A stretch of DNA of 64,000 nucleotides, from positions 520,391-584,390 of the forward strand of contig JAJTFA010000001.1 in the NCBI GenBank assembly GCA_021299635.1, written 5' to 3'. The stretch comes from Sphingobacteriales bacterium (lineage in GTDB: Bacteria; Bacteroidota; Bacteroidia; UKL13-3). This document shows positions 5,905 through 34,499 of the stretch, one piece after another. The number at the start of each line of letters is the position of its first letter. The first letter of the stretch is position 1. The notes beneath the pieces are model-generated. The model saw nothing but the letters and a program-made list of their open reading frames with translations. It was not told the origin of the DNA and did not search any database. The position numbers and the translations under genes are program-made.

Positions 5905-7311
5905 TTATAACAGCGAATAGCTGTCTCCATATTCCGGGATCTCTATTCCCGCTTTTATTTCACTTTTTTCCAAACTTTCTTTCATAGCAAGCAGGTTGGG
6001 CATATCTCCATGAACCAGAAATACCTTTTTTAAATGAGGCTGGTTGCAGGCAATAATGTAATTGTAAATTTCATCTTTATCCGGATGTGAACTGAATACA
6101 TCTGTGCGGCATATTTTTGAATACACCCGATAATCACGACCCTTTATGCTAATTTCCTGCTGGCCCAGCAAAAGTCGGTGTCCTAATGTGCCTTCAGCGC
6201 AAAAGCCTGCAATTAAAATTGTGCTAAACGGATTTTGAATATTATTTTTTACGTGTTCCTGTATTCTACCTCCCTCTACCATTCCGGCAGCTGATATAAT
6301 GATGCACGAATCGGTATAACCCATTAATTTCTCATGGTCATCATAGTCTTTTATCCAGTATAATTCTTCGAAATCAAAGAGGTTGCCATATTCTTTTAAA
6401 AATGCGGCTGCCTCGTTATTGAGCAGTTCCGGATATTTCTCATATGTGTGTGTTGATTTAACTGCAAGCGGGCTATCTACAAAAACTTTAACCGGAGGTA
6501 ATAATCCTTTCTTATTCAATTTGTTCAGCACATGCACAATGGATTGTGTTCTTCCAACGCTAAATGCCGGAATAATTAGCCTGCCTTTGATTCTGATGGT
6601 TTCATCAATATATTGAAGCAAATCATTTTCAGCGCGCTCAGAGCTGGTATGGTTGCGTCCGCCATAGGTTGTTTCCGTTATAAGGTAATCCAAATTATTC
6701 ATAGGACTTGGCGTTCGTATGAGTTCAGCATGGCTTCTGCCCAGGTCTCCGGTAAATCCGATTCTAACTGGTTTGCCATCTTTTTTGGTTTCTATAACAA
6801 CGCTTGCTGCACCCAGCAGATGACCTGCCTCTATCAATTCAATAGAAGTGTCTTCATTTACCTGCAACTTTTTATTAAAAGGTAGGGTAAGTATTTGCTC
6901 CATTGCTTTGGCAACACTTTTATCCGTATAAATCGGTTTAGGTACCAGATGTCTTTTTGTTTTTGATGCCCTGCCTAATTTACTCTTATATTCATCCAGC
7001 TGAATATTGGCACTGTCAAAAAGCAAATGTGCTGCAAGATCTGCAGTAGCCGGTGTACAGATGATATGACCTTTATATCCTTCCTGTGCAAGTGTAGGAA
7101 TATTTCCTGAGTGATCAATATGAGCATGAGTAAGAATCACAAGGTCAATTTCAACCGGATTAAACGGAAAGGAGAAAGCACGTTCATTTAACTCGCGTTT
7201 CTGCTCATAATTCATTCCGCAATCCAGAAGTATCTGATAGCCGTTATCTAACGTAATCAGGTGCATACTTCCTGTAACTTGTCCTGCTGCACCCCAAAAT
7301 GTAACTTTCAA
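5905..7311 (-). CDS. MBL-fold beta-CASP ribonuclease (YSH1-like)
   Basis: GAAGQVTGS, LTHAHIDHSG, AGHLLG, ETTYG, FSVGRTQ, FSSHPD, LVHG motifs. Confidence 0.92.
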   Translation of the reverse strand: MKVTFWGAAGQVTGSMHLITLDNGYQILLDCGMNYEQKRELNERAFSFPFNPVEIDLVILTHAHIDHSGNIPTLAQEGYKGHIICTPATADLAAHLLFDSANIQLDEYKSKLGRASKTKRHLVPKPIYTDKSVAKAMEQILTLPFNKKLQVNEDTSIELIEAGHLLGAASVVIETKKDGKPVRIGFTGDLGRSHAELIRTPSPMNNLDYLITETTYGGRNHTSSERAENDLLQYIDETIRIKGRLIIPAFSVGRTQSIVHVLNKLNKKGLLPPVKVFVDSPLAVKSTHTYEKYPELLNNEAAAFLKEYGNLFDFEELYWIKDYDDHEKLMGYTDSCIIISAAGMVEGGRIQEHVKNNIQNPFSTILIAGFCAEGTLGHRLLLGQQEISIKGRDYRVYSKICRTDVFSSHPDKDEIYNYIIACNQPHLKKVFLVHGDMPNLLAMKESLEKSEIKAGIEIPEYGDSYSLL

Positions 7312-25615: not shown

Positions 25616-27616
25616 ATGAAGGCAAGATATACTTTTTACCTGTTGTTTCTTTCTGCATGGTGCATGGCACAAACTGCAAAAGATTATGCCGTGCAGCTAA
25701 AGGCCGTTGTTTCTCCATCCACACCATCTATTACCATTAGCTGGCCTGCTGATACAAGCGGAGTAAACTATATCGTTTACCGCAAAGCTAAAAACACGGT
25801 TATATGGGCCAATCTATTGGCTACCTTGCCTAAAACCGCTACGCAATACACCGATAATGCGGTGGCAGCGGGCAGTGCTTATGAGTATTATGTGCGCAGA
25901 ACCTACAGCGTTACTACACGCGTGGCACACGGGTATATCTATGCCGGCATACAATTGCCTGAAACCACAACCAAAGGAAAACTGTTATTGCTGGTTGATG
26001 CCAACTATGCGCAACCCCTGGCCGATGAAATTAAAACACTTCAGTTAGATCTGGCTGCCGATGGCTGGGCTGTGCAACGCATGGATATTGCACGCAGCGC
26101 CTCCGTAGCTTCTGTAAAAAATATGATTGTGGCTGCACGTGCAGCCGATACCACACTCCATGCTTTGTTTTTGCTGGGCAGAATACCCGTGCCGTACTCC
26201 GGTGGGTTTAAAGCGGTGAGCGGACAAATTTACCCGCCTGACGGGCATCCGGAGCATGGGGGTGCCTGGCCTGCCGATTTATATTATGGCATGATGGAGG
26301 AAACTTACTGGACAGATACCGATGTAAATGATACCACACCGCAACGCCCGCAAAATGACAATGTGCCGGGTGATGGCAAGTTTGATCAGATGTATTTATA
26401 CCCGCAAGAGGTGCAGCTGCAGGTTGGCAGGGTAGACCTTACCAATATGGCCACCTTTGGAAACAATGATACGCTGCGCATGAAAAGATACCTAAACCGT
26501 GCGCATGATTATAAATATGGCAAACTCACTGTAAACAGGCGTGCGCTGGTTGATGATAATTTCGGGGCCATGAGTGGCGAAGCGTTTGCTGCCTCCGGCT
26601 GGCGCAGTTTTGCTACCATGTATGCCGATTCTGTTTTTGCACGCGATTATTTTGCTTCGCTCAAATCCGGCAATTATCAGTTTGCTTATGGCTGCGGTGC
26701 GGGCTCCTACACCTCATGCAGCGGTGTGGGCAATACCGCCAATTATAACAATGATAGCGTAAACGGTATTTTTAGCATGACCTTTGGCAGCTATTTTGGC
26801 GATTGGGATGCACCGAATAATTTTTTGCGTGCACCACTGTGTGCGCCCAAGCCTATGCTTGCCAGTATGTGGAGCGGCAGGCCGCACTGGCACCTGCACC
26901 ACATGGCCCTTGGCGAAAATATTGGCTATGCGGCCAGGCTCACACAAAACAACTATTTATCTGTTGCAGGTGCCGATGTGTTTGGTTATGTGCATAACAG
27001 TGCACCTACGTTTATACATATTGCACTCATGGGCGACCCCTCCCTGCGTTTGCACCCCATGCAAGCACCTGCGCAGGTAACGGCCACACCCACGGCCGAT
27101 TCTATGCAGGTACAATTAAGCTGGGCTGCTGCTGCCAATGCCGAAGGCTATGTAGTGGTGCGCGCCCGAAACCTGTTTGGCCCGTATAAACCTGTGGCAC
27201 GCATCACCACCACCGATACAGGCTGGACCGACCCTTCACCCGATAATGGCATGAATTATTATATGGTACGTGCCATGCGTTTGGAGCAAACGCCCAGCGG
27301 CAGCTACTACAATTTATCGTTGGGGGTGCCTGATTCTGCCTTTAGCAAAAGTTTTAATGCAGGGGTGCCTGCGCAGCAGGTGGCAGCGCCTGTGCTAACC
27401 GTTTACCCCAACCCCAGCAGCGGGCAGGTATATGTATGGCACAACCATATACCGTTTGCACTTGCGGCCTGGGTATACGACCTGCAGGGCAGGCTGGTGT
27501 TGAGCAAACAATTGCAGGCCGATGACAATAGCCTGCATATTGCCCAACCGGGCATTTATATACTAAAACTTAGCAACAGTGAAACGGAGCAATACAAAAA
27601 GATTGTGGTGAGGTAG
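25616..27616 (+). CDS. T9SS-secreted protein: FN3-like domains flanking a gingipain (C25)-like domain
   Basis: Signal peptide MKARYTFYLLF; LFLLGRIPVP, ADLYY, VGRVD, LMGDPSL C25-like motifs; C-terminal VYPNPSSG...GIYILK...KKIVVR CTD; TATATTTG promoter at 25588-25595. Confidence 0.75.
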   Translation: MKARYTFYLLFLSAWCMAQTAKDYAVQLKAVVSPSTPSITISWPADTSGVNYIVYRKAKNTVIWANLLATLPKTATQYTDNAVAAGSAYEYYVRRTYSVTTRVAHGYIYAGIQLPETTTKGKLLLLVDANYAQPLADEIKTLQLDLAADGWAVQRMDIARSASVASVKNMIVAARAADTTLHALFLLGRIPVPYSGGFKAVSGQIYPPDGHPEHGGAWPADLYYGMMEETYWTDTDVNDTTPQRPQNDNVPGDGKFDQMYLYPQEVQLQVGRVDLTNMATFGNNDTLRMKRYLNRAHDYKYGKLTVNRRALVDDNFGAMSGEAFAASGWRSFATMYADSVFARDYFASLKSGNYQFAYGCGAGSYTSCSGVGNTANYNNDSVNGIFSMTFGSYFGDWDAPNNFLRAPLCAPKPMLASMWSGRPHWHLHHMALGENIGYAARLTQNNYLSVAGADVFGYVHNSAPTFIHIALMGDPSLRLHPMQAPAQVTATPTADSMQVQLSWAAAANAEGYVVVRARNLFGPYKPVARITTTDTGWTDPSPDNGMNYYMVRAMRLEQTPSGSYYNLSLGVPDSAFSKSFNAGVPAQQVAAPVLTVYPNPSSGQVYVWHNHIPFALAAWVYDLQGRLVLSKQLQADDNSLHIAQPGIYILKLSNSETEQYKKIVVR

Positions 27617-27742
27617 GAGGGGATGTTATTGTGCTTTCTGAATGGTCGAGTCAAGTCGGACGTCTTGCAATTGAAAATCATGAGTACCGCTGAAAAACAG
27701 ATTACACCCGCGAATAAATGTAATTACACCTGTGCGTTGGCT

Positions 27743-27758
27743 TCCCGAAGTATCGGGA
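27743..27758. repeat. Short REP-like hairpin at the distal end of the array
   Basis: TCCCGA-agta-TCGGGA flanked by TGTG..GGCTT repeats. Confidence 0.4.
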
Positions 27759-27799
27759 CAAGTTGTGTGGCTTGCAAATGTGTATGACTGCTGCATGGG

Positions 27800-30010
27800 T
27801 TATTCGATTACTCTTTCAAAAATTCCAACAACTTTAAAATTCAACAGGTCGTCTTCCGATAAAACAATGTCTTCGTATTCTTCCAAATTAGATAATGGCT
27901 TAAGTCTTATGGAGTCGTGCTTCCATCCTTCATCAGAAATATTTTTTACACTATGATACTCTTTTACTGTATAGCCTGAACCAAATTCTGAATCATTAAT
28001 TGAGGTTGATTCAACTAATACTATTTTCCCATTTCTTGAACCGCCTTCATCTTGTTTAAATAAACAATATGAACCATTAGGAATTTTATTATTCATTGAT
28101 TCACCAACCACTTTACAAACAAAGTATCCTTTTTTCGCTGCAATATTGAAAGGTGGCTCTATCCATGTTAATTCAGAATGTGATTGCAAGTCGCTGAAAT
28201 TGCCTGCTGCTGCTGAAATGTCTACTAAAGGAATACTATTAACGTATGGTTTAACTTCGTCATTACGGAGAATTCTGAAGGGTATTTGCTTTTTATATGT
28301 TTCAATATTTTCCTTTAAATATTCTCGCAAACTCGGATTACATGCATAAACAAATGTTCCTTTTATGCCGCGATACATAATAGTTTTATAAATATTTATT
28401 ATGTAAGACTTTAGGATATTAATATCAGAAACGCCCTTCTTACCATTTATGTCAAAATATTTTTCTGGGTAAATTATTATAGAGTTTGTCTTTCGGTCAA
28501 AATCTATCTCTTTGCCAAATACCACAGCAGCATAATTTAAATCATATCCTTGTGTTGTATGAATACATCCTATTTCATTAAATGCATTCGATGAATTAAT
28601 CCAATCTTTATCGGTGGAATTCCATTTGAAATTTAAACCATCTAACTCAATGTCAGTTGTGGTAGGTGGTGGTGTAGGATTTAGTTTTGGATTTGATATC
28701 CATGGCCATGAATAACCTGCAATCATCCTGCAAAGGCCGAATTCATTTTCTTTCTTGCTCAACTCGACATGTAAGTCATTGAAATTATCGAAAACGAGCA
28801 ATTCGTAATTCTCTTCTTGATATTTCGTCTTACCTAGTCTATTTATATTTAGTAACTCATCAACAAATTGAATGTAATTGTTGCCTCCCTTGACACGCAT
28901 TTGGGATTTTAATTCAAGACGTAATGAATTTTTATCACTTACTAGTTTATTAAACTTTTCAGAATCAACATCCGAAGGTTTTACTGATTGGGCAGAATCG
29001 TAAAAGAATAACTGATTTTTACTGTTTGCAATTATCCAGTCTAATTCAGTACCACTATCATCTAATCCCAACTTTTGATTATTTTTTTTGAAAGCACCCA
29101 TCCAACTAATATTCTTATACTTCCTGAGTCTATGTGCTTCATCAACTATTAACAAATCGTACTTTTCATTCAACTTGAAAGTATCTGAGGGATTAATAAC
29201 CATAGATGATTTTAGGCCAGGGATTTTTCTAAATACTTTCTCAAGAGATTCTCGAAGAGATGTCATTGCGACCACTAAACCAATTTTGGCATTTGGATAT
29301 TTTGATTTAAATTCCTTTACAAACTTAATTTCTTTTACCTCATCCTCATTATAATCATCTGTTTGTAATTCATCAATATCTGAAGCTAGGAGTTTGATTA
29401 AGTATGCAGCAAGAATTGTTTTGCCAGTACCTGCACTTCCGCTTACAAATATTCTGTTCGATTTTTTAGTTGTAAGACCATCTAAGATTTCTAGAACCGA
29501 ATTATATTGATCTTCATTAAGTGCCTTATAAGGTGAATATTTAAATAGTTCGGAATTTTCAATTTCAGTTAACGATTTGGTTACAATTTTCCGCTCAATA
29601 AGTTTATTCCAAACCTCTTTAAAAAGATTTTTGTAAAGGTCTTGTTGATAATAGTTGTGGTTTATTAATCCATAATTGCCATTTTGAAGGTTGTACGTAC
29701 CTTCAGCTGTGATGTATTGAATTAGATTCGATTCGATGTCAAGTGTTGCAGATTTATTGAATTTGTCTGAACCTATAATTGAAATTGTATCGAGCTTGCA
29801 GCGTTCAGGATTTCCAAGATGGTTTTTAATTCGAAAGAGTGCATTGGTAGATTCACCTACATACGCAGCCTTTATTTTTTCATTTTGAATAAAATAAACT
29901 AAGGGCCATTGATTTTTTACCCAAGGATTCTGCTCAATTTTGTTGAGTGAGTCCTTGTGAAAAGGATATTGTTCCGAAACTTCAATTGATAATTCAAAAG
30001 ACAAACTCAT
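27800..30010 (-). CDS. GIY-YIG nuclease / DUF2075 (Schlafen group 3-like) helicase / S24 LexA-like peptidase fusion
   Basis: N-terminal LVY...YVGES...R.KNH; Walker A GSAGTGKT; DEAH; QMRV; HTTQGYD; YRGIKG; C-terminal AAG, GESM, TVK S24 motifs. Confidence 0.85.
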   Translation of the reverse strand: MSLSFELSIEVSEQYPFHKDSLNKIEQNPWVKNQWPLVYFIQNEKIKAAYVGESTNALFRIKNHLGNPERCKLDTISIIGSDKFNKSATLDIESNLIQYITAEGTYNLQNGNYGLINHNYYQQDLYKNLFKEVWNKLIERKIVTKSLTEIENSELFKYSPYKALNEDQYNSVLEILDGLTTKKSNRIFVSGSAGTGKTILAAYLIKLLASDIDELQTDDYNEDEVKEIKFVKEFKSKYPNAKIGLVVAMTSLRESLEKVFRKIPGLKSSMVINPSDTFKLNEKYDLLIVDEAHRLRKYKNISWMGAFKKNNQKLGLDDSGTELDWIIANSKNQLFFYDSAQSVKPSDVDSEKFNKLVSDKNSLRLELKSQMRVKGGNNYIQFVDELLNINRLGKTKYQEENYELLVFDNFNDLHVELSKKENEFGLCRMIAGYSWPWISNPKLNPTPPPTTTDIELDGLNFKWNSTDKDWINSSNAFNEIGCIHTTQGYDLNYAAVVFGKEIDFDRKTNSIIIYPEKYFDINGKKGVSDINILKSYIINIYKTIMYRGIKGTFVYACNPSLREYLKENIETYKKQIPFRILRNDEVKPYVNSIPLVDISAAAGNFSDLQSHSELTWIEPPFNIAAKKGYFVCKVVGESMNNKIPNGSYCLFKQDEGGSRNGKIVLVESTSINDSEFGSGYTVKEYHSVKNISDEGWKHDSIRLKPLSNLEEYEDIVLSEDDLLNFKVVGIFERVIE

Positions 30011-30336
30011 AATTCATTGTACTTTTTAGCATTACCCTTTGATTTGTCAACTGGATATTTCTCCCCATTCTTTTTTATTTTATCCATCACAATATCCTTT
30101 ATATCAAGCTGATATTTATCTGCAAGAAGAAAAGCATATGCAAAAATATCTGCCAACTCTTCTTTTACCTTTTCCTTGTTTGCTTCATCAGGGCTTTTCC
30201 ATAAAAACAATTCAAGCAACTCACCCGCCTCAACATTTATTGCAAGTGCTAGATCTTTTGGATTGTGGAATTGCTCCCAATCTCTTTCATTCCTGAATTG
30301 TAAGAGTGCTTGTATTATTTCTTTGCTTTCTTTCAT
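30007..30336 (-). CDS. MazG-like nucleotide pyrophosphohydrolase
   Basis: RDWEQFHNPKDLA, EAGELLE, EELAD, KYP; 4-bp ATGA overlap with the helicase gene. Confidence 0.9.
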   Translation of the reverse strand: MKESKEIIQALLQFRNERDWEQFHNPKDLALAINVEAGELLELFLWKSPDEANKEKVKEELADIFAYAFLLADKYQLDIKDIVMDKIKKNGEKYPVDKSKGNAKKYNEL

Positions 30337-30356
30337 GTTGGTATGTTTTTACGCTT

Positions 30357-30493
30357 GCTGGTACTGTTTTGGAGCTTTGCGTTCGGGCGGGCTTTTAAGC
30401 ACTACTCTTGATACGAAGTACCGCACTTCAATTATACACAAAATTGTCAAAAGAAGCACGTTACCCCGCCTGATACAATACCCTTATTATAGC
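30357..30493 (-). repeat. attC-like site 2 (degenerate)
   Basis: Minus strand GCTATAAT...TCAGGCGGGG...CCCGCCCGA...AAAACAGTACCAGC; homologous to site 1; both core boxes mutated. Confidence 0.65.
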
Positions 30494-31039
30494 TCGTTTT
30501 TATTAAGGTCGGCATATGTTTCATCAAGTTTCTTGTTAAATATTTCGTTGTCTAAATTTATGTATTTGTCAAGGTCGTAAGAATGTAATTTGTCCCAGAA
30601 TTTTTGTTCGTCAAAGTTTGGTTTTACTTTATACTCGTCAAACAGTCTCTGGGAGAAAGAAAAAAGTCTGTTTCTATTTCGTAAGGTAGTTATTGTCGTT
30701 TGAGTGTCTGCAGATATATAAACTTTTACCTTATCTGAACCTTTATGTTTGATTAAGAATTGGTCTGTCTTAATAAATACATTAATACTGTCGTCTTGCG
30801 ATTTGAACGCTGGTTTGGTTGCAAAGCTTTCCATTCCCAATTAATTTCTTTGCAGGAATGTGTCCGAAAATTTGTCCCCCTTTTTGAAAGAAATATTCAA
30901 CTTCAATTGTTGAGTCCGTATATGTCAAGTAGCAAATAGTAAAAGGCATTTTTTGTCCTTTGTAAATGCCTTCTTCTAAAGTCTGCCCAAACGAATTTGT
31001 CGTCCAAAGAATAGTTGCTATTAAAAGTATCTGTCTCAT
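30487..31039 (-). pseudogene. Frameshifted secreted hypothetical protein (cassette 2)
   Basis: ORFs 30782..31039 and 30487..30840 join into one 183-aa ORF with a signal peptide if one G of GGG (30836-30838) is removed (...AKKLI-GMESF...). Confidence 0.75.
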
Positions 31040-31060
31040 TTTCGTGTCGTCCTACCATTG

Positions 31061-31193
31061 GCTATAACGTTTTGCAGCTACCCGAAGGGCGGGACTTTTA
31101 CCAAAAAATTGATTTGAAAAACTAATGCTTGATTAACCACAAAACTGTCTTTGGATCTCGAAACCCCGCCTTTTGGGTAGGTGCTGTTATGCC
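31061..31193 (-). repeat. attC-like site 1
   Basis: Minus strand GGCATAAC-AGCACCTACCCAAAAGGCGGG...CCCGCCCTTCGGGTAGCTGC-AAAAC-GTTATAGC; upstream gene's TAA lies inside the first box. Confidence 0.8.
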
Positions 31194-32050
31194 TTCGTTG
31201 TTTTGTCATTCGTTTCAAATTCTTTGAGTGTCTTGCCGTCCTTGTTTTTCCATTCTGTCAGCCCGTTTGCATTACGTCCCATTACCATAACTGCTGCTGT
31301 CGATGGACTACTAAAAATGTAGTCGTCTGAAAATTCAAAGTATTCTCCTTTGTCAACAAGCACTCCTTCGTCAATAAGTTTTTGTCTGTATGTGATGAAG
31401 TTCGGAGTCATTGAATTTACAATTGTAGCTGCTGCTTTGGAGTTTTTGAAAACTACAAAACCATCAGAAGTCGGTTCTCCTTGTCCATCTGCACCACGAG
31501 CAGCTTTAATATAAAATGATTCTTGTTTTTGTTTAGGTTTAAATTCTCTTTTCTCGTCAAACACTTTATGTCCGAGTGTATTTACAAGCATTTTTATGTA
31601 CTCAATAAATTCTTCCATTTCAGCTCTGTCAGATTCAGAAATTGAAGATTGAGTCGGAATTATTGAATTGTCTACCGTGTAGCGATTAGCAGACTTTGCA
31701 ATATCGTGAAGGCGATTTTCTAAATATTTTATGTGAGCTTTGTTTAAGTTTTCGTCCTTGCTTATAAAAACAATTGCTTCGTTCCAGAAATCCTTTTGAG
31801 TCAACTGTTGATTTAGACGTTTTAAAATTGATTCGGCTTCACCTATATAAACTTGGTCTTTCCCCGTATCGTCTTTTCCAAAGAGTAAATAAACTCCGGT
31901 GCTAGTCAGGTCATCACGGTCTGCACAATCCTTAATTTTAATTCTCGGAATTTTATATGCTTTTCCAGACCAGTTGGAAAGTTCACAACTCATTCGTCCG
32001 TTAGGTTCTCCGTCAATGAGAAATATTTTTATTGTCTTTCCGAATTTCAT
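31187..32050 (-). CDS. GIY-YIG nuclease with C-terminal DUF4357 domain
   Basis: GVYLL...VYIGEAE..KRL; KYLE; C-terminal FSSPSTAAVMVMGRNANGLTEWK. Confidence 0.88.
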   Translation of the reverse strand: MKFGKTIKIFLIDGEPNGRMSCELSNWSGKAYKIPRIKIKDCADRDDLTSTGVYLLFGKDDTGKDQVYIGEAESILKRLNQQLTQKDFWNEAIVFISKDENLNKAHIKYLENRLHDIAKSANRYTVDNSIIPTQSSISESDRAEMEEFIEYIKMLVNTLGHKVFDEKREFKPKQKQESFYIKAARGADGQGEPTSDGFVVFKNSKAAATIVNSMTPNFITYRQKLIDEGVLVDKGEYFEFSDDYIFSSPSTAAVMVMGRNANGLTEWKNKDGKTLKEFETNDKTTKA

Positions 32051-32056
32051 TATTTA

Positions 32057-32767
32057 TTAAGTATTAAGTTCACAAATTACAGGCAGGTGATCGCTGTAGT
32101 TTATCCATTTTTCAATGTCCGCTACTTCAAAATTTCTCAGGCCTTTTTCAATTTCTCTTGATGCGAAAATATAATCAATGTGGTATGGTTTTGCTCTATT
32201 TCTTTGGAGAAAAAAAGTCGGTTTTGATTCTTTTCCTTGTTCTTCATTAAAATAGGAATGATACAAACTATTAATGTTCATTTTTGATAAATCATTTACT
32301 ACGTCCGAATGATTCCACCATCTATCCCATTCATCCCAAATAGTATTACTATTAAAATCCCCAGCAAGAATTATTTTCGTAAATTTTGATTTGTTTATTT
32401 CTAGATATTTCCACAATTGTCCGATGTAGCCAAAGTTCGGTGATTTGTTTTGACTTGTCCAAATACTCAATAATTGAAAATCATTATTCACAAGACAAGG
32501 CAAGAAGTGCTTTACTACATGGTCTTTATAGTTAGCACTCCAGTTAATTAATTCAATAGTCGTTTTGTTTTTTGCGAAGATCCCAAGTCCTTTATTTTTA
32601 TTGTCGCCTTTCCAAAGGTGATTTCCTGCCCAAGAAATATAATGTTGATGTTTTGATAATTCTGGATTTTCACATTCTTGGATAATATAAAGGTCAGCAT
32701 TAAGGTCTGAAAGATGTTCAAACTTATTCCTTAACGCACCATTACAATTCCAAGTCACTATTTTCAT
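32057..32767 (-). CDS. Endonuclease/exonuclease/phosphatase (EEP) family protein
   Basis: MKIVTWNCNG, IIQE, AGDFN, HIDYIF, SDHLP motifs. Confidence 0.9.
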   Translation of the reverse strand: MKIVTWNCNGALRNKFEHLSDLNADLYIIQECENPELSKHQHYISWAGNHLWKGDNKNKGLGIFAKNKTTIELINWSANYKDHVVKHFLPCLVNNDFQLLSIWTSQNKSPNFGYIGQLWKYLEINKSKFTKIILAGDFNSNTIWDEWDRWWNHSDVVNDLSKMNINSLYHSYFNEEQGKESKPTFFLQRNRAKPYHIDYIFASREIEKGLRNFEVADIEKWINYSDHLPVICELNT

Positions 32768-32791
32768 TAATTATTCTGTCTTTTTACAATG

Positions 32792-32900
32792 AGGCATAAC
32801 TAGCTTATTCACGCTATACATGTTCGTATATACATCCAAATTTGGGTGTATATGCGCTAATATGCATATGTTGTTTACCAATATGTATGCCTGTTATAGG
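32792..32900 (-). other. Array leader / attI-like recombination site
   Basis: GTTATGCCT box (32800-32792) preceded by a 26-bp near-perfect palindrome (32828-32853); not homologous to the attC-like repeats. Confidence 0.5.
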
Positions 32901-32985
32901 GTAGCTAAGCGCCCTTATCCCAAAAATACCATTTTTCGCATATAAACAATTAGGTTTATTTGCTGCAGTGGCTTTTACTTGCCAT

Positions 32986-33018
32986 AAAAAAAGCCACCCT
33001 GTTTATTGAGGGCGGCTT
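32986..33018 (-). terminator. Intrinsic terminator after tRNA-Arg
   Basis: AAGCCGCCCT-caataaac-AGGGTGGCTT-TTTTT on the minus strand. Confidence 0.8.
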
Positions 33019-33095
33019 TGGTGGTCTCGACAGGATTCAAACCTGTAACCTTCTGATCCGTAGTCAGATGCTCTATTCAGTTGAGCTACGAAACC
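33019..33095 (-). tRNA. tRNA-Arg(ACG)
   Basis: GGTTTCG acceptor stem pairs with CGAGACC; anticodon arm TCTGA-CT ACG GA-TCAGA; T arm GGTTTGAATCC; encoded CCA. Confidence 0.95.
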
Positions 33096-33109
33096 GTTTT
33101 TAAGAGCAG

Positions 33110-33117
33110 CAAATATA
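33110..33117 (-). promoter_or_regulatory. -7 promoter element for tRNA-Arg
   Basis: TATATTTG on the minus strand, 14 bp upstream of the tRNA. Confidence 0.6.
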
Positions 33118-33180
33118 GTGCAATTTCAACTTTATGCAATATTCAGCATCAAATCAGTTGGGCCTGCGGCTGCCTGCAAT

Positions 33181-33200
33181 AAAAAAGCCCCCCGGCTTTT
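33181..33200 (-). terminator. Probable intrinsic terminator of the peroxiredoxin gene
   Basis: AAAAGCCGGGGGGCTTTTTT on the minus strand; short stem. Confidence 0.5.
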
Positions 33201-33217
33201 GTATAATAGCATTGATA

Positions 33218-33703
33218 TTAGGCACCGGCTTGCACACCAAGTGCCTGCAGCGTATCGTTTATTGCCTGAAAATTGGGTAGTTCACCTGCATTTTCCAGTA
33301 CTTCGGCATATTGTATGGTTCCGCTGCCATCTACCACAAATGCAGCGCGTTTGGCCACACCTTTCAGTCCCAGAATCCAGTCTTCATAAATGGCACCATA
33401 AGCCCTGCTGGCTTCTTTGTTAAAATCAGAAAGCAAATCAAAATTTAGTTTTTGCTCTTCTTTAAACTTAGCCAGTGTAAAAGGCAAATCCACAGAGATG
33501 GCCACTACATTGGCTTTATCATTGCTGTATAGGCTAATGGCATCTCTCACGGTGCACAATTGCGTGGTGCAAACACCGGTAAATGCAGCCGGAAAAAAAT
33601 GAATAATCAGGTTTTTGCCTGCAAACTGTTCCAGTGTAACTTCTTTCTTGTCAGAATTAACCAGTTTAAATGAGGGGGCTTTATCGCCTTTCTTTAGTGT
33701 CAT
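33218..33703 (-). CDS. Peroxiredoxin (AhpC/TSA, AhpE/BCP-like)
   Basis: FFPAAFTGVCTTQLC, ISVDLPF, LLSDFN, KRAAFVVD. Confidence 0.9.
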   Translation of the reverse strand: MTLKKGDKAPSFKLVNSDKKEVTLEQFAGKNLIIHFFPAAFTGVCTTQLCTVRDAISLYSNDKANVVAISVDLPFTLAKFKEEQKLNFDLLSDFNKEASRAYGAIYEDWILGLKGVAKRAAFVVDGSGTIQYAEVLENAGELPNFQAINDTLQALGVQAGA

Positions 33704-33752
33704 ACGTGTTATTGTTAATGTATTTAAATAGCAAAGATGTGTTTAAATTGTT

Positions 33753-34499
33753 TTAGTTCACCATGCGTTTAATAAAGCGCAGCTTGTGTGAGTATTCATC
33801 GCGTTCGGCATCATAAATTCCATGTCCGTCAATCTTATCAATTCTTACCCTGCCTGAGGCATGTATAATTTCATCAGGGTTTAGCATAATGCCCACATGG
33901 GTAATGCGGCCTTCATCGTTATCAAAAAATGCCAGGTCACCGGCTTTGGCTTCTTCTCTAAAACCCAGTGTTTCGCCCGTTTCGGCCTGCTGCCATGCAT
34001 CTCTTGGCAGGTTTAATCCGCAAATGCGGTAAACAATTTGTGTAAGGCCAGAGCAATCAATACCAAAAGGGGAGCGGCCGCCCCACAGATAGGGCGCGTG
34101 TAAAAACTGTTTGGCCACATAAACAATATCTGATTTGCCGTAGGCAATATTGGGTAAATCCAGTTCGTAGCTTTGCTGGTTTATGTTGAAAATGCCATTG
34201 TTGTAATCGGGCAGCAGGCTTCCGGGTAAAATAAAAAAGGCATCGTTGCCTGCTTTTGCTTTATTAAACGGATAGCCAACAGAAACCACGGCACCGGCAG
34301 GCTCATGCATAAGTTTTTCTGTTTGCCTGCTGCTAATCCAACCTACATATTGGTCGGCATCGGTTTTAATATGAGTCCAGCCTGCTTCACTTTCTATCAC
34401 CGTATAGGTTTCGCCAAAAAGCAGCATGGTTGTCATTTCAGAGGTGCTGCTTGCTTCTTTGCGCACAGGTATGCAGGAGAGTTTACAAATGCCTTTCAT
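33753..34499 (-). CDS. SH3 + NlpC/P60 (C40) peptidase
   Basis: PYLWGG, GIDCSG, LPRDA, THVGI, IIHAS; N-terminal SH3b-like segment. Confidence 0.92.
   Translation of the reverse strand: MKGICKLSCIPVRKEASSTSEMTTMLLFGETYTVIESEAGWTHIKTDADQYVGWISSRQTEKLMHEPAGAVVSVGYPFNKAKAGNDAFFILPGSLLPDYNNGIFNINQQSYELDLPNIAYGKSDIVYVAKQFLHAPYLWGGRSPFGIDCSGLTQIVYRICGLNLPRDAWQQAETGETLGFREEAKAGDLAFFDNDEGRITHVGIMLNPDEIIHASGRVRIDKIDGHGIYDAERDEYSHKLRFIKRMVN

Follow-up and report, generated by a model that had tools for sequence, protein, structure and literature searches.

Which process placed a run of low-G+C genes, all on one strand, between a tRNA gene and a core gene, and why do the ends of the segments that carry these genes complement each other? 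The question is raised by a stretch of 64,000 nucleotides (nt) from a Sphingobacteriales bacterium (assembly GCA_021299635.1, contig JAJTFA010000001.1, positions 520,391 to 584,390), hereafter called the window, in which a minus-strand array spans positions 32874-27617. Upstream of the array the core genome begins with a tRNA-Arg gene (anticodon ACG, 33019..33095, minus strand; found by ARAGORN and scoring 65.1 bits with the Rfam tRNA model), and the far flank is the end of a convergent core gene for a secreted protein, at 27616. The G+C content of the array is 0.32-0.38 compared to 0.42-0.50 in the flanks. Every gene between tRNA-Arg and 27616 lies on the minus strand, in the order endonuclease/exonuclease/phosphatase family gene, DUF4357 gene, a frameshifted small open reading frame (ORF), a MazG-like gene and a gene for a helicase of 736 amino acids (aa) with an S24 peptidase domain. 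We consider it very probable that the region is a short, decaying integron-type cassette array that starts from an attI-type insertion site without an integrase gene beside it, and that it belongs to a large family of the Bacteroidota, which as far as found is undescribed.

Complementary cassette ends and the probable crossover point

Read on the minus strand, cassette 1 (31068..32799, TT...G; two genes and attC site 1) starts at the box GTTATGCCT at 32800-32792, and the box AGGCATAAC at 31194-31186 is its reverse complement in 9/9 positions. Cassette 2 (30365..31067, minus strand; one broken gene and the decayed attC site 2) starts at GTTATAGC at 31068-31061 and ends in GCTATAAT at 30493-30486, the two pairing in 7/8 positions. 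The two boxes within attC site 1 agree less well, namely in TAAC/GTTA and 2/5 further bases. The initial annotation had reported these four boxes, both pairings and the poorer match inside site 1, and re-reading the sequence returned all of them. The same offset is seen in a second array of this genome 35 kb off, just outside the window (locus B; L006), where the cassette start GTTATAAGCC (6602-6593) and the cassette end GGCTTATAAC (5433-5424) are complementary in 10/10 positions, and in a sister species (G002), where it reaches 10/10 in two cassettes.

Boxes of only 8-9 nt with a fixed TAAC/GTTA core might pair by chance, or the pairing might be that of ordinary R''/R' hairpins, in which case the repeats would be intergenic terminators or elements of the repetitive extragenic palindrome or miniature inverted-repeat transposable element type, without any cassette mobility. 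The repeats do follow stop codons and form hairpins, and they lack an Rfam family (over 27000-34000, with E up to 1, the tRNA alone passed). We scored the six variable bases beyond GTTA/TAAC, with at least 5/6 counted as a match, in two samples. The first comprised 103 non-overlapping attC sites from 26 sources, five opposite-strand duplicates having been dropped; the second comprised 80 loci fetched independently via the recombinase gene described below, mostly from named Flavobacterium and further Bacteroidota. In the first sample, the ends of a cassette matched in 58/77 cases (mean 4.77), compared to 12/101 for the two boxes of one site (mean 2.59), 6/52 for skip-one pairs and 493/9871 for random pairs (mean 2.27). 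The corresponding values of the second sample were 50/64 for cassette ends, 9/104 for the boxes of one site and 448/10667 for random pairs, and in 28/41 of its loci the bases after the GTTA of attI matched the R'' extension of the first attC in at least 5/6 positions. Thus pairing is with the opposite end of the cassette and not within the site, which leaves a practically negligible probability for chance or hairpin pairing. Offset complementarity exceeds chance and the rule holds well beyond the window, in which cassette 1 scores 5/6 and cassette 2 scores 4/6 by the same measure. As such, the rule is textbook integron biology; Hall, Stokes and colleagues are said to have noted in the 1990s that the first bases of a cassette complement its own inverse core site.

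Behind the variable bases, cassette starts carry a semi-conserved leader (GTTA nnn G c AA t.. TA, often CCAATnGTAGGACGACAC; 206 sites) with a nearly invariant A 7 nt after GTTA, as seen for example at 31067-31045 of the window and at 5304-5282 of L006.

The offset would be explained if each cassette had once been a circle closed at its own attC that integrated through one site-specific crossover, located between G and TT of the GTTA box. The first bases of the integrated cassette would then be the other half of the R' box of its own attC and would therefore pair with the R'' box at the far end. The initial annotation had made this claim for circular cassettes at G^TT, and at the level of sequence evidence it is supported by breaks of homology as well as by the pairing of cassette ends throughout the family. 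For cassette 1, homology of the attI to locus B, G002 and another relative (G004) ends at 32797, which is the A of the GTTA box. A copy of cassette 1 in a further genome (G030:C6) has a 25-nt, 100%-identical leader that begins at exactly T32799 and is preceded by T, not G. At the right edge, more than 60 attC matches from other genomes stop at 31066-31064. Both boundaries fit the predicted extent of cassette 1. The end of cassette 2, predicted at about 30365, agrees with the G-equivalent of the decayed site 2 as located by its position in the model alignment. Homology to other genomes thus breaks at GTTA/TT, as the initial annotation had expected, which again argues against chance or terminators. 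Moreover, the fourth box base is inherited along with the cassette: a GTTG start was found in 4/4 cassettes that end in CAAC, compared to 2/6 for the boxes of the same site. Taken together, homology breaks and fourth-base linkage therefore locate the crossover after the G and before the fourth base, in agreement with G^TT.

The copy in G030:C6 (L061 2446-1501) stands directly after the stop codon of an ordinary gene with neither attI nor attC upstream; its nuclease gene is absent and its attC is cut off after about 60 nt. To judge from its borders, it looks like a natural secondary-site insertion, comparable to cassette insertion at secondary sites of a genome (attG; 10.1101/2022.09.11.507474), though as a single natural example with a truncated attC.

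Within the contigs of four metagenomic runs, joints were listed at 27622/27724, 28570/28697, 31360/31987 and 32338/32722, none of which falls on a box. Ends of contigs and loose ends do concentrate in the box regions (31063-31065, 31191, 30327-30356 and 32810-32839), yet this clustering may only reflect the repeat family in other organisms of the metagenomes.

The attI platform and the attC sites

The attI-type site occupies 32797..32874 on the minus strand, without an integrase gene beside it. It consists of a near-palindrome (32822-32852) followed by ...ATAAGCTA G^TTA, where crossover separates G32800 from T32799. About 60 nt upstream of the first cassette, comprising the near-palindrome and ...ATAAGCTA GTTA, are common to the window and locus B, and homology stops at GTTA(T); with up to 7 mismatches allowed, the element occurs at these two places of the genome only. 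In three relatives (G030, G004, G002:C14) the same element stands directly 3' of the stop codon of a tyrosine recombinase gene which identifies it as the attI of the system. In 17/19 recombinase loci, as judged by eye, a GTTA box accompanied by a conserved ATATAA-like element comes after the stop codon. Across these 19 loci, and in the window as well, the attI contains a box of 10-16 nt in triplicate: two copies form an inverted pair around a CCCAAAATTGGG-like centre, and the third stands in direct orientation next to GTTA. The sequence of the box varies between genomes, with all three copies changing in step, and the boxes are putative protein-binding sites.

At locus B the last 45-60 nt of the recombinase gene still adjoin the attI, and the match to the integrase locus of G002 is limited to the last 45 nt of the gene plus attI. 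No integrase remnant was found upstream of the window attI or of the tRNA-Arg attI of G002 by tblastn with E up to 10. In the latter species, a member of the same genus, two other cassettes occupy this tRNA-Arg and attI locus; by this comparison, the two species have different cassettes on one platform. This leaves two options: an integrase remained at the tRNA-Arg attI until after the species split, or the site is served in trans. The orphan attI of the window would likewise be either a site served in trans or a relic. Elsewhere in its genome G002 does have the recombinase (G002:C14), the contig concerned breaking off precisely at the GTTA of the attI (L113 end).

Two further observations concern the loss of integrase genes. 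Where the gene was lost at locus B (L006 about 6800-6850) a repeat GGGCTTTACGCT...ATCCCTAACGCG is present, which also occurs upstream of a nuclease/DUF4357 gene pair in another genome (G065; L081 about 6370-6440) and may be a dispersed repeat involved in deletions. In G009:C17 (L090 6601-6826) a recombinase pseudogene, reduced to the last ~75 codons and carrying a stop and a frameshift, lies beside attI and an array, so that integrase loss seems to recur in the family.

The direct neighbourhood of tRNA-Arg suggests another origin: 27617-33019 could be a genomic island that a phage-type integrase put into the 3' end of the tRNA gene, the cassette look being secondary. Low G+C content and defence-like genes would fit such an island as well as its position does. 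However, the island contains no integrase gene, and among 19 families of direct repeats none involves the tRNA 3' end; for want of both, a tRNA-linked island of phage type was rejected as a candidate class. Furthermore, at the corresponding position of G002 the same attI is followed, from precisely GTTA onwards, by entirely different content, and the far end there is an attC. We therefore regard insertion of an island into the tRNA gene as very improbable and return to the integron-type array.

Its two attC sites differ in preservation. Site 1 (31062..31192, minus strand) is intact, with the R'' box GCATAAC at 31192-31186 and the R' box GTTATAG at 31068-31062. Site 2 (30362..30493, minus strand) is decayed: its R'' reads TATAAT, AGTA replaces GTTA in R', and its L boxes are unpaired; the AGTA/TAAT box pair is unique among the 103 sites. 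Both repeats align to each other and to a third copy, the attC of locus B (TTATAAC ... GTTAGCA). From these three sites we built the covariance model R1, which gives 147.9 bits for site 1 and 131.9 bits for site 2, the latter score being not independent because site 2 is one of the seeds. R1 finds sites in 53/61 related genomes, often in arrays. The common plan is an R'' box ending in TAAC, a 5-nt spacer, a variable L box with a kept complement, GGCGGGG ... CCCGCC, a 9-nt spacer and an R' box starting with GTTA. L boxes compensate between site 1 and the locus B site (CTACCC/GGGTAG versus TTGGC/GCCAA), TAAC is present in 85/103 sites and GTTA in 89/103. A typical attC of the family is about 138 nt long and conserved; high conservation of attC within a lineage is familiar from the Vibrio repeats.

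Folded as single-stranded DNA, the bottom strand of site 1 (the plus strand of the window) reaches -23.8 kcal/mol (z -4.47; 0/200 shuffles as good), compared to -15.7 kcal/mol (z -1.42) for the top strand. The locus B site shows the same order (bottom z -2.22, top z -0.81), while in site 2 neither strand beats shuffles (bottom z +0.56, top z +0.08). The bottom strand may be the substrate of recombination. The non-transcribed strand being the better folder is also wrong for a terminator.

The stretch was present, at no less than half of the sampled words, in 20 lake or freshwater runs. In four such runs the summed contig depth over attC site 1 (30918-31319) was 140-420, compared to about 5-30 in the adjacent sequence, and attC sites of this family are therefore plentiful in the communities sampled. 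A third array of the same genome (G000:C8:56151-59399; L056 6152-9399) contains four attC sites of 91.3, 38.6, 34.2 and 31.4 bits, and its cassettes are read from the minus strand. A truncated cassette gene marks the point at which the array leaves the contig; the attI of this array and any integrase would therefore lie in the assembly gap.

The array-linked recombinase

The gene that precedes attI in relatives encodes a Xer-like tyrosine recombinase of 345-370 aa with an extra N-terminal domain of ~95 aa. Against NF040815 (XerA type) it scores 223.3 bits with a cut-off of 220, against TIGR02249 (integron integrase) 208.5 bits with a cut-off of 265, the latter in two stretches that skip profile positions 180-243. 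In the alignment with VchIntIA (2a3v) 16 residues replace 58, and PF00589 is matched in a single unbroken stretch. In 119/120 homologues the box I Arg and the box II His are 89-90 aa apart, a distance that is also that of Xer proteins. From these comparisons, the recombinase is without the additional domain that IntI proteins have around patch III, and by that criterion it falls outside the integron integrases. Its best match in fold and sequence is XerA (5hxy; 141 bits, Foldseek E 6e-16). An AlphaFold2 model (predicted local distance difference test score 80.4) contains a confident N-terminal beta-beta-alpha-beta-beta-alpha unit at residues 19-71; the N-terminal domain has no Pfam family, and whole-chain Foldseek matched only the core of the model, to XerA and IntI4 equally well. 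The protein family is large: no fewer than 7997 members reach E <= 1e-30, and at least 594 recombinase places were confirmed in one-genome-per-species contigs, the additional domain being absent throughout.

The association of this gene with the arrays is strictly polar. At the 80 recombinase loci, 106 attC sites lie downstream (264,281 nt) and 0 upstream (484,669 nt), all 106 having the strand orientation in which cassettes and recombinase gene point the same way, a one-sidedness that is at odds with terminators or scattered repeats. At least one attC is present in 37/46 loci that have 1.5 kb or more of downstream flank. The other 34/80 loci have less than 1.5 kb of downstream sequence. Such short flanks, together with the G002 contig that ends at GTTA, indicate that assemblies evidently break at these repeats, which would hide arrays in draft genomes. 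The proposed arrangement of the family is hence a recombinase gene, an attI right after its stop codon and co-oriented cassettes that each end in an attC of ~138 nt.

Does this recombinase move the cassettes? It might instead resolve or invert DNA at the palindrome, for example, while XerC/XerD or an unrecognised integrase moves the cassettes. Its want of the IntI insertion and the dif-like palindrome in the attI region would suit such a division of labour, as would the present genome, which keeps Xer-like genes and not the array-linked recombinase. On the other hand, a canonical IntI above the TIGR02249 cut-off occurs in 0/61 related genomes, the linkage is strictly polar, and first cassettes begin at the GTTA after the recombinase gene in the 28/41 loci mentioned above. 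Furthermore, the box beside GTTA varies together with the palindrome arms between genomes, as co-evolution with an adjacent protein would look. A different enzyme as the mover of the cassettes thus appears improbable, if less so than the two alternatives discussed before, and the array-linked recombinase presumably performs the recombination.

Based on this view, the Bacteroidota, many cultured Flavobacterium included, would carry an integron class of their own that the standard definition and software miss, with a Xer-like integrase, bulge-marked attC sites and a three-box attI, and integrase-less platforms would still exchange cassettes in trans. Exchange in trans at an orphan attI would account for two sister species with different cassettes at one such site. 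We give this extended proposal about an even chance. In the window, cassette 1 with its intact attC should be excisable given a recombinase, while cassette 2 with its decayed attC and the former MazG/helicase cassette, whose attC is lost, would be frozen in place.

Several observations weigh against the array as an integron variant driven by this recombinase. First, this assembly yielded no member of the recombinase family: the top tblastn hit shows 27% identity, and the highest score against TIGR02249 was 78.8 bits with the cut-off of 265. Since the assembly is 94.5% complete and the third array runs off contig C8, absence from the genome is not proven. Second, the missing additional domain is called necessary for integron recombination in the literature, and the role of the recombinase is argued from association. 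Third, the 5- and 9-nt spacers lead to a 4-nt bulge of the bottom strand, lying between R and L boxes, in place of the usual unpaired spacer plus single extrahelical bases. Fourth, neither a circle junction nor the joint 32800/31067, both proposed as a check, was present in the contigs of the four runs; contigs drop rare forms, so this is no evidence either way. Finally, in G065 the gene pair of cassette 1 lies outside any attC context.

Cassette genes and relation to known integrons

Cassette 1 carries two genes on the minus strand. The first (32057..32767) encodes a protein of 236 aa of the endonuclease/exonuclease/phosphatase family (PF03372, 30.5 bits), for which PADLOC gave no match. The second (31187..32050) encodes a DUF4357 protein of 287 aa (PF14267, 86.9 bits) that matches PADLOC model PDC-S14 with 405.1 bits and is a candidate anti-phage defence gene. 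Homologues of the DUF4357 protein occur in six other genomes of the family at 81-91% identity, and both genes stand side by side in G065 at 78% identity.

The gene of cassette 2 (30487..31039, minus strand) is small, has a signal-peptide-like start and is frameshifted into the ORFs 31039-30782 and 30840-30487. It has no Pfam family and no DNA-level homologue in 119 genomes of the family. Since the contig of one run matches 30327-31060 without a difference, the frameshift can hardly be put down to an assembly error confined to this genome.

Fused to cassette 2 is the stretch 27764..30364 (minus strand) with a MazG-like gene (30336-30007) and the gene of the 736-aa protein (30010-27800), both recognised by Pfam; the latter protein has a weak GIY-YIG match, a Schlafen-type helicase domain and the S24 peptidase domain. 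In G033 the same pair, at 89% identity, is followed by a decayed attC of 20.3 bits, and homology to G033 stops near 27763. From this comparison the pair is a former cassette whose attC is gone in the window. The MazG-like gene overlaps the start of the 736-aa protein, the N-terminus of which resembles PDC-S14 (28.2 bits). At least six further genomes of the family also contain the pair, with 67-89% identity; the two genes may thus constitute a defence module.

The last 147 nt at the far end of the array (27617..27763, minus strand) align weakly, by hand, to attC 3' halves (27690-27775) and may be what is left of an attC, namely its decayed 3' half, together with a cassette fragment. A search with R1 for a third attC over 26500-33500, with filters off and E up to 10, returned nothing under E 0.2 besides the two sites. 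Core homology to G002 (97%) resumes at 27616, and in G002 an attC abuts the same core sequence.

How does the family compare to known systems? With sedentary chromosomal integrons and integrase-less attC clusters (CALIN) it shares tandem, co-oriented and mostly promoterless cassettes, an imperfect palindrome (R'' RYYYAAC ... R' GTTRRRY), the G^TT crossover and a cassette start that complements its own R''. Cassette-encoded defence candidates are described from sedentary chromosomal integrons as well, in the available portion of one report (10.1101/2024.07.02.601686). With its two sites as detected by model R1, the window would fit the CALIN definition "two or more attC sites and no integrase" as worded in the accessible text of PMC9024848. 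Unlike sedentary chromosomal integrons, the family has a recombinase without the IntI additional domain and with an extra N-terminal domain, the gene of which is co-oriented with the cassettes and followed by attI after its stop codon; its attC sites have 5-nt and 9-nt spacers with a 4-nt bulge, and in one genome an attI is kept without integrase at two loci.

In archaeal integrons, attI is likewise located immediately downstream of intI, with a canonical insertion point, short co-oriented ORFs and folded attC sites, according to the part of Ghaly et al. (10.1101/2022.02.06.479319) that was accessible. In that same portion, archaeal IntI proteins are reported to have the IntI-specific additional domain, which the Bacteroidota recombinase is without. 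Xer-type recombinases are similar in that XerA is the best match and a dif-like palindrome is part of attI. Yet the array-linked gene is a dedicated one, not that of a chromosome-dimer resolvase, and its product has the extra N-terminal domain. In contrast to Xer/dif modules, with sites of 28 nt made of two 11-nt arms and a 6-nt spacer on which the XerC/XerD of the host act, the cassettes are bounded by folded sites of ~138 nt. A Xer/dif-dependent module was rejected as a candidate: the dif-like palindrome occurs once, in attI, and not between cassettes.

Surveys select IntI proteins by the additional domain, which is called necessary for activity in the accessible parts of three papers (PMC2426708; 10.1101/2022.02.06.479319; 10.1101/542381). 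According to the available text of PMC9024848, the authors of IntegronFinder had recorded nothing but In0 elements for the Bacteroidetes in 2016, and their 2022 count included a single complete integron, that of Salinibacter. This near-absence suggests that the IntegronFinder models may miss the present family. A review names the Bacteroidota among the integron-bearing phyla, without detail in the portion at hand (PMC8618304). Our literature search, which left aside subscription journals and supplementary tables with possible Bacteroidota CALIN counts, found no publication that describes native integron arrays of Bacteroidota or Flavobacterium, and within the same limits no integron integrase without the additional domain. 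As far as found, the family is thus an undescribed integron variant.

Taken alone, the window is one more, worn example of a known rule, and it is the family behind it that matters. Cultured Flavobacterium strains that are non-pathogenic would make the role of the recombinase directly testable. If it is true that this recombinase moves the cassettes, the additional domain would not be universally required for recombination of folded attC sites, and a large reservoir of mobile cassettes, many of them with defence candidates, would have been left out of integron censuses.

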